Source: a virus (Duplodnaviria > Heunggongvirae > Uroviricota > Caudoviricetes). From it: a DNA stretch of 8,047 nucleotides. The DNA lies in the IMG/VR virus record IMGVR_UViG_2531839580_000015. One strand, written 5' to 3'. The first letter of the stretch is position 1. Every line of letters begins with the position of its first letter. The position numbers were made by a program, and so were the translations under genes. Of this stretch, positions 1 to 8,047 are shown one piece after another. The notes below the pieces were generated by a model that worked only from the letters and a program-made list of their open reading frames with translations, was not told the origin of the DNA and ran no database searches.

Positions 1-136
1 ACAACTGAGTAAACGAGAGAGGTATACCGACAAATGGCAGCGACGCACACACTCCCTCTGGCGTCACCGGGAATGGCACGCATCTGCCTTTACGGGGATT
101 TGCAACGATTTGGCCGCCGCATCGACCTTCGTGTGA
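1..136 (+). CDS. K: 3' end of tail assembly protein K homolog (partial, 5' truncated by window start)
   Basis: The frame using positions 2,5,8... is open from the window edge to TGA at 134-136 (44 codons). It overlaps the ATG of the downstream I gene (34) by 103 nt in a different frame, which is the K/I overlap I recall for phage lambda. The fragment is too short for me to confirm by sequence recall. Confidence 0.5.
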   Translation, partial: QLSKRERYTDKWQRRTHSLWRHREWHASAFTGICNDLAAASTFV

Positions 137-675
137 AAACGGGGGCCGAAGCCATCCGGGCGCTGGCCATGCAGATCCCGGCGTTTCGTCAGAAGCTGAG
201 CGACGGCTGGTATCAGGTACGCATTGCCGGGCGTGATGCAGGTAAAACCGAATTGTCTGCCCGTCTTAATGAGCCGCTGGAAAATGGTGCCGTGATCCAT
301 ATCGTGCCGCGTCTGGCAGGAGCCAAAAGTGGCGGTGTGTTTCAGGCTGTGCTGGGGGCGGCTGTTATGGCGGTTGCTATATGGATGCCGGGGGTAGGAA
401 TTATGGCGAGTAATCTGCTGTTTTCTCTCGGTGCCAGTATGGTGCTCGGTGGTGTGGCGCAGATGCTGGCACCGAAAGCCAGAACTCCCCGTACACAGAC
501 AACGGATAACGGCAAACAGAACACCTATTTCTCCTCACTGGATAACATGGTTGCCCAGGGCAATGTTCTGCCTGTTCTGTACGGTGAAATGCGCGTGGGG
601 TCACGTGTGGTTTCTCAGGAGATCAGCACGGCAGACGAAGGGGATGGTGGTCAGGTTGTGGTGATTGGTCGCTGA
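34..675 (+). CDS. I: Tail assembly protein I (lambda gpI family), 213 aa, apparently intact
   Basis: ATG at 34 preceded by GAGAGG at 17-22. The translation (MAATHTLPLASPGMARICLYGDLQRFGRRIDLRVKTGAEAIRALA...VVSQEISTADEGDGGQVVVIGR) matches lambda gpI at both ends, with a shorter, divergent hydrophobic Gly/Ala-rich centre. It sits 60 nt upstream of J, as in lambda. Confidence 0.9.
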   Translation: MAATHTLPLASPGMARICLYGDLQRFGRRIDLRVKTGAEAIRALAMQIPAFRQKLSDGWYQVRIAGRDAGKTELSARLNEPLENGAVIHIVPRLAGAKSGGVFQAVLGAAVMAVAIWMPGVGIMASNLLFSLGASMVLGGVAQMLAPKARTPRTQTTDNGKQNTYFSSLDNMVAQGNVLPVLYGEMRVGSRVVSQEISTADEGDGGQVVVIGR

Positions 676-693
676 TGCAAAATGTTTTATGTG

Positions 694-721
694 AAACCGC
701 CTCCGGGCGGTTTTGTCGTTT
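694..721 (+). terminator. I-J intergenic stem-loop with T tract (possible attenuator or mRNA structure in the late operon)
   Basis: AAACCGCC (694-701) and GGCGGTTT (706-713) form a perfect 8-bp inverted repeat around a 4-nt loop TCCG, followed by a T-rich tract TTTTGTCGTTT. It lies in the 60-nt gap between the I stop and the J start. Confidence 0.4.
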
Positions 722-735
722 ATGGAGCATGACGA

Positions 736-3700
736 ATGGGTAAAGGCAGCAGTAAGGGGCATACCCCGCGCGAAGCAAAGGACAACCTGAAGTCCACGCA
801 GTTGCTGAGTGTGATCGATGCCATCAGCGAAGGGCCGGTTGAAGGTCCGGTGGATGGATTAAAAAGCGTGCTGCTGAACAGTACACCGGTGCTGGACAGT
901 GAGGGGAATACTAACATCTCTGGTGTCACGGTGGTGTTCCGGGCAGGTGAGCAGGAACAGACACCGCCGGAGGGATTTGAATCATCAGGTTCCGAGACGG
1001 TACTGGGTACGGAAGTGAAATACGACACGCCGATTACCCGGACCATCACGTCGGCAAACATCGACCGTCTGCGCTTTACCTTCGGTGTGCAGGCACTGGT
1101 GGAAACCACCTCAAAGGGGGACCGGAATCCGTCGGAAGTCGCCTGCTGGTTCAGATACACGTAAGGTGGCTGGGTGACGGAAAAAGACATCACCATTAAG
1201 GGCAAAACCACTCCAGTATCTGGCCTCGGTGGTGGTGGATAACCTGCCGCCGCGCCCGTTTAATATCCGGATGCGCAGATGACGCCGGACAGCACCACAG
1301 ACCAGCTGCAGAACAAAACGCTCTGGTCGTCATACACCGAAATATCGATGTGAAACAGTGCTACCCGAACACGGCACTGGTCGGCGTGCAGGTGGACTCG
1401 GAGCAGTTCGGCAGCCAGCAGGTGAGCCGTAATTATCATCTGCGCGGGCGTATTCTGCAGGTGCCGTCGAACTATAACCCGCAGACGCGGCAATACAGCG
1501 GTATCTGGGACGGAACGTTTAAGCCAGCATACAGCAACAACATGGCCTGGTGTCTGTGGGATATGCTGACCCATCCGCGCTACGGCATGGGGAAACGTCT
1601 TGGTGCGGCAGATGTGGATAAATGGGCGCTGTATGTCATCGGCCAGTACTGCGACCAGTCGGTGCCGGACGGTTTTGGCGGCACGGAGCCGCGCATCACC
1701 TGTAATGCCTACCTGACCACGCAGCGTAAGGCGTGGGATGTGCTCAGTGATTTCTGCTCGGCGATGCGCTGTATGCCGGTATGGAACGGGCAGACGCTGA
1801 CGTTCGTGCAGGACCGACCATCAGATAAGGTGTGGACCTATAACCGCAGTAATGTGGTGATGCCGGATGATGGCGCGCCGTTCCGCTACAGCTTCAGCGC
1901 CCTGAAGGACCGCCATAATGCCGTTGAGGTGAACTGGATTGACCCGAACAACGGCTGGGAGACGGCGACAGAGCTTGTTGAAGATACGCAGGCCATTGCC
2001 CGTTACGGTCGTAACGTCACGAAGATGGATGCCTTTGGCTGTACCAGCCGGGGGCAGGCACACCGCGCCGGGCTGTGGCTGATTAAAACGGAACTGCTGG
2101 AAACGCAGACCGTGGACTTCAGCGTGGGTGCGAAGGGCTTCGCCATGTACCGGGGATGTCATTGAAATCTGCGATGATGACTATGCGGTATCGCACCGGG
2201 GGCGCGTGCTGGCGGTGAACAGCCAGACCCGGACGCTGACGCTCGACCGTGAAATCACGCTGCCATCTCCGGACCACGCTGATAAGCCTGGTTGACGGAG
2301 GGATCCGGTCAGCGTGGAGGTCAGTCCGTCACCGACGGCGTGAAGGTAAAGTGAGCCGTGTTCCTGACGGCGTTGCGATACAGCGTTGGGGGCTGAAGCT
2401 GCCGACGTGCGCCAGCGCCTGTTCCGCTGCGTGAGTATCCGTGAGAACGAGACGGCACGTATGCCATCACCGCCGTGCAGCATGTACCGGAAAAAGAGCC
2501 ATCGTGGATAACGGGGCGCACTTTGACGGCGACCAGAGCGGCACGGTGAATGGTGTCACGCCGCCGCGTGCAGCACTGACGCGAAGTCACCGCAGACAGC
2601 GGGGATATCAGGTCTGGCCGCTGGGAACGCCGAAGGTGGTGAAGGGCGTGAGTTCATGCTTCGCCTGACCGTGGCAGCGGATGACGGCAGTGAGCGGCTG
2701 GTCAGCACGGCCCGGACGACGGAAACCACTTACCGCTTCACACAACTGGCGCTGGGGAACTACAGGCTGACAGTCCGGGCAGTAAATGCGTGGGGGCAGC
2801 AGGGCGATCCGGCATCGGTATCGTTCCGGATTGCCGCACCGGCAGCGCCGTCGCAGATTGAGCTGACACCGGGGTATTTTCAGATAACCGCCACGCCGCA
2901 TCTTGCGGTTTATGACCCGACGGTACAGTTTGAGTTCTGGTTCTCGGAAAAGCGGATTGCGGATATCAGGCAGGTTGAAACCGCAGCCCGCTATCTTGGC
3001 TCGGCGCTGTACTGGATAGCTGCCAGTATCAATATCAAACCGGGCCATGATTATTACTTTTATATCCGCAGTGTGAACACCGTTGGCAAATCGGCATTCG
3101 TGGAGGCCGTCGGTCGGGCGAGCGATGATGCGGAAGGTTACCTGGATTTTTTCAAAGGCAAGATAACCGAATCCCATCTCGGCAAGGAGCTGCTGGAAAA
3201 AGTCGAGCTGACGGAGGATAACGCCAGCAGACTGGAGGAGTTTTCGAAAGAGTGGAAGGACGCCAACGATAAGTGGAATGCCATGTGGGCTGTCAAAATT
3301 GAGCAGACCAAAGACGGCAAACATTATGTCGCGGGTATTGGCCTCAGCATGGAGGACACGGAAGAAGGCAAGCTGAGCCAGTTCCTGGTTGCCGCTAACC
3401 GTATCGCGTTTATTGATCCGTCTAATGGCAACACAAGACCAATGTTTGTTGGTCAGGGCGATCAGATATTCATGAACGACGTGTTCCTGAAACGCCTGAC
3501 GGCTCCGACCATTACCAGCGGCGGTAATCCTCCGGCATTTTCCCTGACACCGGACGGGCGGCTGACGGCGAAAAATGCCGATATCAGCGGTAACGTGAAT
3601 GCGAACTCCGGGACGCTCAACAACGTCACGATTAACGAGAACTGTCGGGTTCTGGGAAAACTGTCCGCCAACCAGATTGAAGGCGATCTCGTTAAAACAG

Positions 3701-4095
3701 TGGGCAAAGCTTTCCCCCGGGACTCCCGTGCACCGGAACGGTGGCCATCAGGGACCATCACCGTCAGGGTTTATGACGATCAGCCGTTTGACCGGCAGAT
3801 TGTTATTCCGGCGGTGGCATTCAGCGGCGCTAAACATGAGAGGGAGAATAACGATATTTATTCGTCATGCCGCCTGATAGTACGGAAAAACGGTGCTGAA
3901 ATTTATAACCGTACCGCGCTGGATAATACGCTGATTTACAGTGGTGTTATTGATATGCCAGCTGGTCGCGGCCACATGACGCTGGAGTTTTCGGTGTCAT
4001 CATGGCTGGTAAATGACTGGTATCCCACAGCAAGTATCAGCGATTTGCTGGTTGTGGTGATGAAGAAAGCCACCGCAGGCATCAGTATCAGCTGA
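736..4095 (+). pseudogene. J: Tail tip host-specificity protein J (lambda gpJ family); reading frame broken into at least five segments
   Basis: ATG at 736 with GGAG at 724-727. The N-terminus MGKGSSKGHTPREAKDNLKSTQLLSVIDAISEGP... matches lambda J. The homologous reading continues through 736-1164, short pieces in alternating frames across 1165-1350 (in-frame TAA at 1162-1164, stops at 1240-1242, 1280-1282 and 1351-1353), 1350-2165, 2249-2434 and 2441-2668, then 2656-4095, which ends ...[10 protein letters not shown] with stop TGA at 4093-4095. Total span is 3360 nt against 3399 nt for lambda J. J-like peptides ([47 protein letters not shown]) are recoverable from different frames in 2165-2660. 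Confidence 0.85.
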
Positions 4096-4114
4096 ATTTT
4101 ATAACCCATATACG

Positions 4115-4138
4115 GGCGCCAGAAATGGCGCCTTTTTT
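4115..4138 (+). terminator. Rho-independent terminator downstream of J
   Basis: GGCGCC (4115-4120) and GGCGCC (4127-4132) form a 6-bp GC-only stem around the loop AGAAAT, immediately followed by TTTTTT (4133-4138). It starts 20 nt after the J stop. Confidence 0.7.
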
Positions 4139-4162
4139 ATTGCAGAAAAGCGAGAGGTAATT

Positions 4163-4759
4163 ATGCGTAAAGTTTGTGCAGCCATTTTGTCCGCAGCCAT
4201 CTGTCTGGCCGTATCCGGTGCGCCTGCATGGGCGTCTGAGCAGCAGGCCACACTGAGCGCAGGGTATCTTCATGCCCGTACGAACGCTCCCGGCAGCGAT
4301 AATCTGAACGGGATTAACGTGAAATACCGTTATGAGTTTACGGACACGCTGGGGCTGATTACGTCATTCAGTTATGCCAACGCTGAGATGAGCAAAAAAC
4401 GCATTACAGCGATACCCGCTGGCATGAGATTCCGTGCGTAACCGCTGGTTCAGCGTGATGGCGGGCCGTCTGTGCGCGTGAATGAATGGTTCAGCGCGTA
4501 TGCGATGGCGGGTGTGGCTTACAGCCGTGTGTCGACTTTCTCCGGGGATTATCTTCGCGTAACTGACAACAAGGGGAAAAAGCACGATGTGCTGACCGGA
4601 AGTGATGACGGTCGCCACAGCAACACGTCTCTGGCGTGGGGGGCTGGCGTGCAGTTTAACCCGACCGAATCCGTGGCCATTGATATTGCTTATGAAGGCT
4701 CCGGCAGTGGTGACTGGCGCACTGACGGTTTCATCGTGGGTGTCGGTTATAAATTCTGA
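4163..4759 (+). pseudogene. lom: Lom outer-membrane protein (Ail/Lom/OmpX/PagC beta-barrel family), prophage moron; frame interrupted mid-gene
   Basis: ATG at 4163 preceded by GAGAGG. The N-terminus MRKVCAAILSAAICLAVSGAPAWA is a typical signal peptide, and SEQQATLSAGYLHARTNAPGSDNLNGINVKYRYEFTDTLG... matches lambda Lom, as does the C-terminus ...AIDIAYEGSGSGDWRTDGFIVGVGYKF (stop TGA 4757-4759). Between about 4386 and 4462 the Lom-like reading moves through all three frames: DEQKTHYSDTRWHE in one, DSVRNRWFSVMA in another, then back to GPSVRVNEW. This leaves an in-frame TAA at 4439-4441. If the three shifts are sequencing errors the gene is intact. Confidence 0.8.
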
Positions 4760-4785
4760 TTAGCCAGGTAACACAGTGTTATGAC

Positions 4786-4812
4786 AGCCCGCCGGTTCAG
4801 GCGGGCTTTTTT
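4786..4812 (+). terminator. Rho-independent terminator downstream of lom
   Basis: AGCCCGCC (4786-4793) and GGCGGGCT (4800-4807) form a perfect 8-bp stem around the loop GGTTCA, running into TTTTTT (4807-4812). It lies between the lom stop and the stf start. Confidence 0.7.
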
Positions 4813-4823
4813 GTGGGGTGAAT

Positions 4824-7800
4824 ATGGCAGTAAAGATTTCAGGTGTACTGAAAGACGGCACAGGAAAACCGGTACAGAACTGCACAATCCAGCTGAAAGC
4901 AAAACGTAACAGCACCACGGTGGTGGTGAACACGCTGGCCTCAGAAAATCCGGATGAAGCCGGGCGTTACAGTATGGACGTTGAGTACGGTCAGTACAGC
5001 GTTATTCTGTTGGTGGAAGGATTCCCGCCGTCACATGCCGGGACCATCACCGTGTATGAAGATTCCCGACCCGGTACGCTGAATGATTTTCTCGGTGCCA
5101 TGACGGAGGATGATGCCCGTCCGGAGGCACTGCGCCGTTTTGAGCTGATGGTGGAAGAGGTGGCGCGTAACGCGTCCGTGGTGGCACAGAACACGGCAGC
5201 CGCAAAGAAGTCAGCCAGTGATGCCGGCACATCTGCCAGTGAGGCGGCAACCCATGCGACTGATGCTGCAGGCTCAGCACGCGCAGCCAGCACGTCAGCC
5301 GGACAGGCCGCGTCGTCGGCTCAGTCAGCATCTTCCAGCGCAGGAACGGCATCAACAAAGGCCAGTGAAGCATCGAAAAGTGCTGCTGCTGCAGAGTCCT
5401 CAAAAAGCGCGGCAGCTACCAGTGCCGCTGCGGCGAAAACGTCAGAAACGAATGCGGCAGCGTCACAACAATCAGCAGCCACTTCTGCATCCGCCGCGAC
5501 CACGAAGGCGTCAGAAGCAGCCACCTCAGCCCGGGATGCGGCGGCCTCAAAAGAGGCAGCGAAATCATCAGAAACGAACGCATCATCAAGCGCCAGTAGT
5601 GCCGCTTCCTCGGCAACGGCGGCAGGAAATTCCGCGAAGGCGGCAAAAACGTCCGAGACGAACGCCAGGTCTTCTGAAACGGCAGCGGGACAGAGTGCCT
5701 CAGCTGCGGCAGGCTCAAAAACAGCGGCTGCATCATCTGCCAGTGCCGCATCAACAAGTGCCGGGCAGGCCTCAGCCAGTGCCACCGCTGCCGGAAAGTC
5801 GGCAGAAAGTGCCGCATCGTCTGCTTCAACAGCCACAACGAAGGCTGGCGAAGCCACTGAACAGGCCAGCGCAGCAGCGAGGTCAGCTTCCGCAGCGAAG
5901 ACATCCGAAACGAACGCGAAAGCGTCGGAAACCCGTGCAGAATCCTCAAAAACGGCTGCCGCATCGTCAGCCAGTTCGGCGGCGTCATCGGCATCATCGG
6001 CGTCTGCTTCAAAAGATGAGGCGACCATACAGGCGTCAGCAGCGAAGGGCAGCGCCACGACGGCATCCACGAAGGCGACAGAGGCTGCTGGTAGTGCGAC
6101 GGCAGCAGCTCAGAGCAAAAGTACGGCGGAATCTGCAGCAACGCGCGCTGAGACAGCGGCAAAACGGGCAGAGGATATTGCATCCGCCGTGGCGCTTGAG
6201 GATGCGAGCACGACGAAAAAGGGGATAGTACAGCTCAGTAGTGCGACTAACAGCACGTCTGAAACGCTGGCGGCAACGCCAAAGGCAGTAAAATCAGCCT
6301 ATGACAATGCAGAGAAACGTCTGCAGAAAGACCAGAACGGCGCTGATATACCCGATAAGGGACGCTTCCTGAACAACATTAACGCGGTCAGTAAAACAGA
6401 CTTTGCTGATAAGCGTGGTATGCGTTATGTGCGGGTTAACGCTCCTGCAGGTGCAACATCTGGAAAATATTACCCTGTTGTTGTTATGCGTTCTGCTGGC
6501 TCAGTAAGCGAACTGGCATCAAGGGTCATTATCACCACGGCAACGCGAACCGCAGGCGATCCGATGAATAACTGCGAGTTTAACGGATTTGTTATGCCTG
6601 GTGGCTGGACTGACAGGGGGCGTTATGCTTATGGAATGTTCTGGCAATATCAAAACAATGAACGAGCCATCCACTCAATAATGATGAGTAATAAGGGCGA
6701 TGATTTGCGCTCTGTGTTCTATGTTGATGGCGCTGCTTTCCCTGTTTTTGCGTTTATCGAAGATGGCCTGTCAATATCCGCACCTGGTGCTGATCTCGTT
6801 GTTAATGATACGACCTATAAGTTTGGGGCAACAAATCCGGCGACTGAATGTATCGCGGCGGACGTTATCCTTGATTTTAAGAGTGGGCGTGGTTTTTATG
6901 AGTCTCATTCGTTAATCGTTAACGATAACTTGTCGTGCAAAAAACTTTTTGCCACAGACGAAATTGTAGCGCGTGGTGGTAATCAGATTCGAATGATAGG
7001 TGGGGAGTATGGGGCATTATGGCGTAATGATGGCGCTAAAACTTACCTGCTGCTTACCAATCAAGGTGATGTTTATGGTGGCTGGAATACATTAAGACCG
7101 TTTGCTATTGATAACGCAACCGGCGAACTGGTTATTGGAACCAAACTGTCTGCAAGTCTGAACGGTAACGCATTGACAGCAACAAAGCTGCAAACGCCAA
7201 GACGGGTTTCTGGGATTGAGTTTGATGGTTCCAGAGATATTACTTTAACCGCCGCGCATGTGGCTGCTTTTGCCAGAAGGGCAACGGATACATATGCCGA
7301 TGCGGATGGTGGCGTTCCCTGGAATGCCGAATCAGGCGCTTATAATGTCACCCGCTCTGGCGACAGCTATATTCTGGTTAACTTCTATACCGGAGTCGGA
7401 AGTTGCCGGACCTTGCAGATGAAGGCACATTACAGAAATGGAGGTCTGTTCTACCGTTCCTCAAGAGATGGCTATGGTTTTGAGGAAGACTGGGCAGAAG
7501 TTTATACCTCGAAAAATCTTCCACCAGAAAGCTACCCAGTCGGCGCACCAATCCCGTGGCCATCAGATACCGTTCCGTCTGGTTATGCCCTGATGCAGGG
7601 GCAGACTTTTAACAAATCTGCCTACCCGAAACTTGCAGCCGCTTATCCGTCAGGCGTGATCCCTGATATGCGTGGCTGGACGATTAAGGGCAAGCCCGCC
7701 AGTGGTCGTGCCGTATTGTCTCAGGAACAGGACGGCATAAAATCGCATACCCACAGCGCCAGCGCATCCAGTACTGATTTGGGGACGAAAACCACATCGT

Positions 7801-8047
7801 CGTTTGATTACGGCACTAAATCCACGAATAACACTGGTGCGCATACCCATAGTTTAAGTGGCAGCACGAATGCAGCTGGTAATCACAGCCATAGAGATGG
7901 CCGTCGATTTAACCCCAGTGTTTTTAAAGATACTTATCAATATGGTTATACAAGCTCAGGTCAAAATACCTGGGGTGTACAAGGCTCAGTAGGTATGTCT
8001 ACGGGGGCGTTAGCTAATACCAGTACAGATGGTAACCATAGCCACTC
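4824..8047 (+). CDS. stf: Side tail fibre protein (lambda Stf / Rac StfR-like), 3' truncated by window end; 1074 complete codons without a stop
   Basis: ATG at 4824 preceded by GGGGTGA. I translated the whole frame by hand from 4824 to 8047 and found no stop codon. The N-terminus [62 protein letters not shown]... is the conserved lambda Stf / StfR start. An Ala/Ser/Thr-rich shaft follows, then ...[76 protein letters not shown]... with repeated His-x-His motifs. The ORF track omits it only because it runs off the window. Confidence 0.9.
5190..6200 (+). repeat. Low-complexity Ala/Ser/Thr-rich degenerate repeat region encoding the stf shaft
   Basis: About 1 kb in which roughly two thirds of codons are GCN, TCN/AGY or ACN. 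An 18-nt motif AAR-ACN/TCN-TCN-GAR-ACG-AAY (peptide K-T/S-S-E-T-N) recurs four times at irregular spacing, at about 5436-5456, 5562-5579, 5645-5662 and 5898-5915. The region is stop-free in several frames on both strands. Confidence 0.75.

Follow-up and report, generated by a model that had tools for sequence, protein, structure and literature searches.

Organization of the tail module

The window, by which we mean the whole 8,047-nucleotide stretch analysed here, is sequence-identical to contig AQBV01000091.1 (8,047 bp, the entire contig) of the ETEC isolate Escherichia coli p0305293.12 (GCA_000358595.2). This is an unfinished draft contig that starts inside K and ends inside stf, both of which are repeated prophage genes. 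It matches the lambda-type K-I-J-lom-stf-tfa module of E. coli lambdoid prophages in gene order, gene sizes and Pfam domains (Table 1), and the gene identities are confirmed by the Pfam matches and by the way in which the best relative is annotated in RefSeq. The domains include FNIII-A_GpJ, Phage-tail_3, Ig_J, Phage_Tail_Tip and Ig_GpJ_C in J, and phage_tail_N, Gp34_trimer and Collar in stf. Over its full length the window is 96.4% identical to a RefSeq prophage adjoining zinT in APEC E14033, and it shares 95% identity with phages 2H10, PhiR34_1 and Kati. It differs from the lambda-type tail module in 39 missing bases and an allele mosaic alone, and the biology is the same.

The genes at the two sides of the module are open. 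Frame 1 is open over positions 13–675, covering I, and frame 3 has no stop between 4785 and the end of the contig, with the stf ATG at 4824, 3,224 nt of the gene present and the stop codon approximately 175 nt beyond the contig end. Neither has an indel relative to its relatives, in agreement with the preliminary description, in which I (642 nt) and this part of stf were reported to be free of frame breaks. The repetitive shaft that was described in stf (~5200–6300) is present as a degenerate Ala/Ser/Thr-rich repeat with spacings that are multiples of 21 nt and 60–88% identity, but TRF finds no tandem array there. J is open in three pieces, at 733–1164 (frame 1), 1200–2165 (frame 3) and 2527–4095 (frame 1), and further short stretches of open frame occur between 2083 and 2668. 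Two frame-2 pieces, 4064–4441 and 4442–4759, make up the open parts of lom, with a single stop between them; the third of the lom deletions restores the frame, and the stop arises before it.

Table 1. Genes, deletion patches and shared segment in the window (coordinates are window positions).
Feature	Coordinates	Strand	Basis
K, tail-tip gene (C40 family peptidase), 3' end, cut by contig start	1..136	+	RefSeq annotation of relative L001 (CDS 2393-3136; window = locus minus 3000)
I, tail assembly gene, intact, 213 aa	34..675	+	ATG ORF of 642 nt; Pfam Lambda_tail_I; no indel versus relatives
J, tail tip / host specificity gene, fragmented, 36 bases missing; repaired 1131 aa	736..4095	+	Open frames, Pfam, repair
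Patch 1, in J, seven 1-nt deletions at switch from allele A to allele B	1139..1344	+	Comparison with relatives
Patch 2, in J, 27 deletion events, 29 nt	2132..2653	+	Comparison with relatives; putative mixture of reads from the two J copies
lom (Ail/Lom outer membrane protein), three 1-nt deletions	4163..4759	+	Open frames, Pfam, repair, alignment
Patch 3, in lom, three 1-nt deletions	4386..4466	+	Alignment; all three also in sibling contig L003
Segment also in widespread defective prophage (lysozyme - 'lom - stf - tfa)	4404..8047	+	Homology of L005-L012 begins at 4404
stf, side tail fibre gene, open to contig end, 1075 aa of ~1132	4824..8047	+	Open frame, Pfam, RefSeq annotation; no indel versus relatives

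Deletions in J and lom

Comparison with the best full-length relative reveals 31 indel events totalling 39 nt, all of which are deletions in the window and none of which lies in I or stf. When references with zero mismatches are used, the identical 39 nt are split among 37 events, of which 35 remove 1 nt and two remove 2 nt. As previously described, the frame breaks are limited to three patches in J and lom (Table 1), and position 4404, where the homology shared with the defective prophage starts, falls within the third of these. Within the patches the deletions are the sole difference from the closest relatives, with 0 insertions and 0 substitutions, and patch 2 has zero mismatches to its reference L093 outside of the deletions. 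The packing of the events into ~800 nt is far beyond chance. In contrast, the presence of all three patches in J and lom, which constitute about half of the coding sequence, has a chance of ~0.13 by our own arithmetic, taking patches rather than the 37 events as the units; because the three patches are the independent units, confinement to J and lom is not significant by itself.

Eighteen of the 37 events are outside any base run and the remainder are in runs of 2–5 nt, and no simple-sequence repeats were found at the deletion sites. This pattern speaks against slipped-strand phase variation or programmed frameshifting, which would place indels in homopolymers or simple repeats. Putting the 39 bases back yields a single open J of 1131 codons and an open lom, with no lesion left in either, and 1106 of the 1131 residues of the repaired J are identical to those of a RefSeq J.

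Not one of the complete E. coli genomes that match, more than 4,400 in number, has the deletions, and for patch 2 there is no complete-genome record at 99% identity or above. The J fragments are present in one contig only, and the lom fragment only in AQBV01000091.1 and one draft of neighbouring accession. The segments themselves are commonly repeated: in a count over 5,426 complete genomes of E. coli, the median was 2 places per genome for the stf segment, the J patches and lom alike, and the maxima were 16 for stf, 10–14 for the J patches and 13 for lom. The earlier proposal that J and lom are more often multi-copy than stf is not borne out by these counts.

Deleted sites and the allele mosaic

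We asked where the deletions lie relative to natural variation, placing them with zero-mismatch pairwise references and shift-equivalent deletion spans, and scoring a column as polymorphic if the minor allele frequency was at least 0.05 in panels of 12–81 J/lom homologs. Polymorphic columns hold 34 of the 37 events (7 of 7 in patch 1 and 24 of 27 in patch 2), compared to a null expectation of ~6. Permutation matched the observed overlap in 0 of 5000 trials for each of patches 1 and 2, and in 19 of 5000 for patch 3, which has three events only. An independent alignment places 26 of 31 events on polymorphic columns, with 4.8–7.4 expected; a first test with a MAFFT keeplength alignment had arbitrary gap placement and 12 apparent mismatches in patch 2, and the conclusion is unchanged. 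There is also a strong codon bias. Of the 18 deletions that can be placed without ambiguity, 16 affect the third codon position (p = 1.7e-6), and for 34 of the 37 events it is again position 3 that holds the most variable base in the deletion span.

Many of the deleted sites correspond to differences between particular pairs of public sequences. In patch 1, the zero-mismatch reference L090 differs from either L093 or L048 at all seven deleted sites and at one other site. In patch 2, L015 and L093 differ at the sites of 19 of the 27 events and at three other sites; most of the remaining eight events, which are not L015/L093 differences, are polymorphic in the panel. In lom, there is an A/G base difference between L015 and L093 exactly at each of the three deletions. 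The rule is not absolute, and some of the allelic differences inside the patches are kept as a called base rather than dropped.

Using L015 and L093 as public stand-ins for two alleles (A and B, respectively), we mapped the sites at which they differ along the contig. From the left, the contig is A over 10–1123, has dropped sites over 1139–1343, is B over 1388–2117 and has dropped sites again over 2131–2652. It is then mostly B to 3021, A over 3057–3559 and B over 3669–4222, and, following dropped sites at 4385–4465, mostly A over 4555–5519. Gene I is of the A allele at all 71 informative sites (10–645), and six dropped sites on this map accompany the A-to-B switch in patch 1. The contig thus combines two alleles in a chimera, with the patches located where these meet or mix.

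A second contig, AQBY01000093.1 (L003), is informative in this regard. It appears to derive from a sibling colony, as suggested by the neighbouring accession numbers and by identity extending over 1,452 nt, idiosyncratic deletions included. Its J is intact (944 aa). The contig begins downstream of the first six patch 1 deletions and does not cover them, and it lacks both the last deletion of patch 1 and all of those in patch 2. It has allele A where the window has B, and over 2301–2652, within patch 2, its bases alternate between A and B. It carries the same three lom deletions as the window, together with extra lesions at 4474 and 4556–4562. Because L003 has allele A where the window has B, and because the allele map is chimeric, we infer that there is probably a second copy of J in the genome, the A and B alleles being putative paralogs within it. 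ETEC strain 120899 was examined as a candidate closed genome with both alleles, but its second prophage (L094), which is in the same complete genome as the B-like L093, is not A-like.

Origin and significance of the frame breaks

We conclude with high confidence that the frame breaks are an artefact of the assembly consensus, arising from co-assembled paralogous prophage copies and not from selective decay, and that J and lom are most likely intact in the bacterium. The most likely scenario is that the source clone has two or more lambdoid prophages, with J and lom genes that have diverged by a few percent, and that in an Illumina-only Celera Assembler draft the reads or unitigs of both copies were fused in one contig, which would hop between the two alleles. 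In three zones of pile-up, the consensus step would have dropped the column at many of the sites where the copies disagree, and each dropped column would appear as a 1-nt deletion. Candidates for the step responsible include a gap call at the disputed column, the handling of polymorphic regions, and a later stripping of ambiguous characters. On this point the CABOG paper reports only that the consensus module gives special treatment to 'regions of apparent polymorphism' (PMC2639302). The Dhaka multi-colony ETEC isolates were sequenced by HiSeq with paired ends and 300-bp inserts, and assembled with Celera Assembler at more than 200x coverage (PMC4462620). P0305293 is absent from the main text of that study, and inclusion of the isolate is assumed; P0305293.1 is a 2011 ETEC from Bangladesh sequenced at the same centre (PMC4309559).

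This situation resembles consensus errors in collapsed repeats or collapsed haplotypes, in which two diverged copies are fused, the consensus alternates between them and the errors are at copy-variant sites, and a short contig that starts and ends in repeated prophage genes is a further likeness. It departs from typical errors of this type in that the disputed column is lost instead of being assigned one of the two bases, giving a signature purely of 1-nt deletions. The preliminary description had offered repeat-induced mis-polishing as one explanation. An artefact arising from repeated copies is upheld, but there was no long-read polishing in the published method, which used Illumina only (PMC4462620), and the errors are not random low-quality ones, a base being dropped specifically where the co-assembled copies differ.

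The same consensus artefact could have formed from two strains in mixed or contaminated DNA instead of from two prophages of one genome. The chimeric contig is compatible with this, and in the published study divergent ETEC lineages were recovered from two of 12 patients (PMC4462620). However, both the zone of collapse and the lom lesions are reproduced in an independent assembly from the sibling, which argues for variation within the clone; several copies of J, lom and stf per genome are also the norm in E. coli (median 2–3 places), and the defective prophage sharing 4404–8047 is widespread. We thus regard a mixed source as improbable.

Genuine pseudogenisation, in which J and lom decay by frameshifts while I and stf are retained, is still harder to sustain. 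It would account for broken J and lom genes beside open neighbours, and the three lom deletions do recur in a second assembly. In bacteria, however, substitutions far outnumber indels during natural decay, whereas here all 37 lesions are deletions of 1–2 nt, unaccompanied by substitutions, insertions, nonsense mutations or larger deletions. A mutational process would also be blind to the allele-variant and third-codon sites at which the deletions fall, the deletions are in none of the complete genomes and J is intact in L003. Only the lom lesions recur in L003, each at an A/B difference and beside extra lesions specific to that assembly. Selective decay of the central-fibre genes, the other explanation put forward in the preliminary description, is therefore rejected, the lesions being deletions only, at allele-variant third-codon sites, in genes that are intact once refilled. 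The proposal that identical indels in related strains would indicate decay is likewise not valid here, as the recurrence is in a sibling draft from the same pipeline and each deletion is on an A/B allele difference. Inactivation of a lambdoid tail fibre gene by a frameshift has a known precedent in lambda PaPa, where the stf frameshift (orf-401/orf-314) is a real, single and verified mutation of a laboratory strain. In the window it is stf that is clean and J and lom that have the 37 site-specific pseudo-deletions, of which those in J are gone from the part that the sibling assembly covers.

Random local errors of sequencing or polishing that are independent of copy differences, such as those from low coverage, an unpolished long-read consensus or homopolymer miscalls, seem equally remote. 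The clustered, deletion-only pattern does look like an unpolished long-read consensus, but about half of the deletions are outside base runs, the longest run is 5 nt, and errors of this kind would be predicted to hit polymorphic columns in ~6 of 37 events rather than 34, and codon position 3 in one third of cases rather than 16 of 18. A further point against random errors is that these isolates were, by the published account, sequenced with Illumina alone to more than 200x and assembled with Celera Assembler (PMC4462620).

Least credible of all is that the deletions were made in the cell, by recombination between J/lom copies, heteroduplex formation and aberrant repair removing one nucleotide per mismatch: no process in E. 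coli is known to remove one nucleotide at each heteroduplex mismatch, and the intact but allele-scrambled J of the sibling assembly weighs strongly against it.

The consensus artefact has consequences for annotation. Truncated products of the contig are in public protein databases under misleading names (e.g. ENG45179.1, 'fibronectin type-III family protein'). There are ~200 ETEC drafts from the same pipeline, and similar pseudo-frameshifts are likely in their multi-copy prophage genes; such drafts would give wrong pseudogene counts and lead to wrong inferences of prophage 'domestication'. The signature can be recognized without reads, as 1-nt deletions only, with no substitutions relative to the nearest relative, at allele-variant third-codon sites and with allele switching in the flanks, and this could allow such artefacts to be flagged automatically. 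For the prophage itself there is no biological consequence: its host-range genes are very probably intact, with no selective loss of the central fibre.

Gene content and reading frames

The window is the entire contig AQBV01000091.1 (8,047 bp) of assembly GCA_000358595.2, Escherichia coli p0305293.12, and it is filled by the distal portion of a lambda-type tail module. Pfam matches on the called genes (Lambda_tail_I; FNIII-A_GpJ, Phage-tail_3, Ig_J, Phage_Tail_Tip and Ig_GpJ_C; Ail_Lom; phage_tail_N, Gp34_trimer and Collar) and the RefSeq annotation of the E. coli APEC E14033 prophage, which is 96.4% identical to the window, support the gene identities, as do phages such as 2H10, PhiR34_1 and Kati (~95% identical). 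A stop-to-stop frame map bears out the preliminary description that I and stf are open and that J and lom are in pieces; the J pieces occupy frame 1, then frame 3, then frame 1 again, with scraps between, and lom consists of two same-frame pieces with one stop between them.

Genes of the tail module and allele assignment along the contig (informative sites distinguish locus L015, standing for allele A, from locus L093, standing for allele B)
Feature	Position	Strand	State	Informative sites
K, 3' end	1–136	+	truncated by contig start	
I	34–675	+	intact	
J	736–4095	+	broken	
lom	4163–4759	+	broken	
stf, first 3224 nt	4824–8047	+	open up to contig end	
Segment	10–1123		allele A	91/93
Segment	1139–1343		dropped	
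Segment	1388–2117		allele B	22/25
Segment	2131–2652		dropped	
Segment	2655–3021		mostly B	
Segment	3057–3559		allele A	122
Segment	3669–4222		allele B	23
Segment	4385–4465		dropped	
Segment	4555–5519		mostly A	

The start of gene I differs among related RefSeq records, giving 180 aa (from the equivalent of window position 133) or, elsewhere, 213–215 aa (window 34–675 vs 3133–3675 in L001, the E14033 prophage), and the exact 213-aa I protein is on record solely in the window's own contig. The stf shaft has ~61% GC, is Ala/Ser/Thr-rich and carries degenerate repeats whose spacings are multiples of 21 nt; no tandem array was reported in it by TRF. Long open reading frames of 249–359 aa overlie the shaft in other frames or on the other strand, at 5149–6228 (+, frame 1), 5321–6070 (−) and 5416–6183 (−), and one of them (5321–6058, −) is called as a gene in the public record; these are a by-product of shaft composition and the degenerate repeats.

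Deletions in J and lom

Alignment to the best full-length relative revealed 31 indel events totalling 39 nt, all deletions in the window, at 1140–1344 (patch 1), 2132–2653 (patch 2) and 4386–4463 (patch 3), with no insertions in the window and no indel of either kind in I or stf; the breaks lie where they had been placed earlier. A patch-by-patch search against 5,426 complete E. coli genomes returned best matches of 308 nt for 301 nt of the window (patch 1) and 630 nt for 601 nt (patch 2), with no other difference, and of 264 nt for 261 nt (patch 3), with one substitution besides. The window's deletions are present in none of the >4,400 matching complete genomes. Zero-mismatch references (the homologous loci L090, L093 and L015) put the number of events that make up these 39 nt at 37 (35 of 1 nt, two of 2 nt), with no substitutions or insertions. 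With the loss of seven bases J passes out of frame 1 into frame 3, the loss of 29 more returns it to frame 1, and lom, having lost three, regains its frame after one created stop. Restoring all 39 bases yields a single open J of 1131 aa, matching a RefSeq J at 1106 of 1131 residues, and an open lom, with no further defects in either gene.

The deletions coincide with positions that vary among homologs, for which panels of 80 IMG/VR loci plus fetched genomes were assembled. In the first alignment 26 of 31 events fall on columns with a minor allele frequency of at least 0.05 (expected 4.8–7.4; 0 of 5000 permutations as extreme). When the test was repeated with the zero-mismatch references, allowing shift-equivalent placements, events on polymorphic positions numbered 7/7, 24/27 and 3/3 in patches 1, 2 and 3 (null means 0.9, 4.9 and 0.45), with 0, 0 and 19 of 5000 permutations as extreme, the last for a patch of only three events. 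A codon-position test, which needs no homolog panel, places 16 of 18 unambiguously placed deletions at third positions (p = 1.7e-6), and for 34 of 37 events a third position is also the most variable base within the span of the deletion. No mutational process or random read error can target synonymous, allele-variable sites in this way; to do so, a process must have two alleles in view at the same time. Polymorphic columns are rarer in the patches (9–13%) than in the rest of J (~20%), and these low-polymorphism patches are where the two copies are alike enough for merging.

Copy number does not set J and lom apart. They had been taken to be the genes most often multi-copy, yet the stf segment is just as multi-copy, with a median of two places per genome (maximum 16), the same median as for the J patches (maximum 10–14) and lom (maximum 13). 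By our arithmetic, the chance that three independent patches all fall within J and lom, half of the coding length, is ~0.13. All that the clean stf shows is that disputed columns were not lost in it; its nearest match reaches 99.0%, and it may itself be a mosaic, natural or artefactual. The closed genome of ETEC strain 120899 (NZ_CP025916.1) holds both the best patch 2 match (L093, 137–143 kb) and the best stf match (L094, 556–572 kb), in two different prophages ~420 kb apart, and by megablast has five places matching patch 2 and seven matching stf, illustrating how many near-identical tail modules an ETEC chromosome can carry.

Two alleles in the contig and in a sibling assembly

Scoring the window at all sites that distinguish L015 from L093 shows the contig to be a chimera of two alleles, with the patches as dropped segments (Table). 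In patch 1, L090 differs from L093 and L048 (a further J/lom homolog) at all seven deletions and one other site; for patch 2, 19 of 27 deletions and three other sites separate L015 from L093; and these two loci differ at all three lom deletions, in each case by a simple A versus G whose column the window lacks.

Contig AQBY01000093.1 (GCA_000358655.2, 3,981 bp), three accession steps from the window's, spans window 1291–5249 and is almost certainly from a clonal sibling, judging from the accession series and shared idiosyncrasies; fifteen sibling strains, p0305293.1 to.15, are listed in the taxonomy. Over 3022–4473 the two contigs agree at 100% identity, the three lom deletions included, and AQBY01000093.1 has its own 1-nt and 7-nt lom lesions at 4474 and 4556–4562. 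It lacks all patch 2 deletions and the last patch 1 deletion, and its J has an unbroken 944-aa reading frame. It carries allele A at 1343–2202 and 2652–3559, where the window is mostly B, and over 2301–2652, within patch 2, it alternates between A and B nearly site by site. In this assembly too, both copies piled up in the same zone; the calls at the disputed columns diverge from the window's in J and agree with them in lom. Its J, despite looking intact, is a scrambled haplotype equal to no real allele.

A widespread defective prophage (loci L005–L012; lysozyme, 'lom, stf, tfa) shares window 4404–8047, its deletion junction at 4404 lying inside patch 3. This remnant occurs in numerous assemblies of E. 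coli and in metagenomes, with a phage lysozyme gene immediately before the 3' half of lom and, after that, stf and tfa; its 95-aa lom product is identical to that of window 4472–4759 and recorded in 24 contigs. In the homologous prophage of another assembly, L004 (GCA_020556185.1, JACWBF010000003.1, a 4.9-Mb contig), J, lom, stf and the gene for the tape measure are each split into several called genes, which suggests an error-rich assembly of another kind; L004 has the same lom C-terminal product as the window.

Origin of the frame breaks

The lesions are deletion-only, private to the assembly and at sites that vary between copies, and the consensus is chimeric, with a collapse zone common to the sibling assembly. 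Selective decay of the central-fibre genes, one of two explanations first proposed, is refuted: the sibling's behaviour shows that the J lesions are not biology, and the lom lesions common to both drafts do not prove decay, since the same two copies and software produce the same error. The other, repeat-induced mis-polishing, was essentially right as an artefact and wrong in its details. P0305293.1 is listed as an ETEC isolate from Bangladesh in 2011, associated with cholera-like illness and sequenced at IGS GSCID (PMC4309559). A study of multiple colonies per patient used HiSeq2000 paired-end reads, 300-bp inserts and Celera Assembler at >200x, keeping contigs of at least 500 bp (PMC4462620; P0305293 does not appear in its main text); if this method is valid for p0305293.12, neither long reads nor polishing were involved. 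Celera Assembler merges unitigs into contigs and gives 'regions of apparent polymorphism' a special treatment (PMC2639302), and the columns may have been lost while it built the contig or scaffold consensus, or during clean-up afterwards. The two alleles are probably two prophages in one genome rather than a mixed culture, an origin made likelier by how the sibling assembly behaves and by multiple lambdoid prophages being ubiquitous.

The artefactual fragments of J and lom have been deposited as separate proteins (ENG45175.1, ENG45176.1, ENG45179.1 and ENG45180.1), with names such as 'fibronectin type-III family protein' and 'phage tail family protein'. Database records of the 479-aa J fragment point to exactly one contig, AQBV01000091.1; the 271-aa J fragment falls among TerC family proteins in the 90% clustering, apparently a clustering oddity. 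'Intact' genes of this assembly series can likewise be artefactual mosaics. As a feature of this prophage the frame breaks are not real, and the biology is ordinary.
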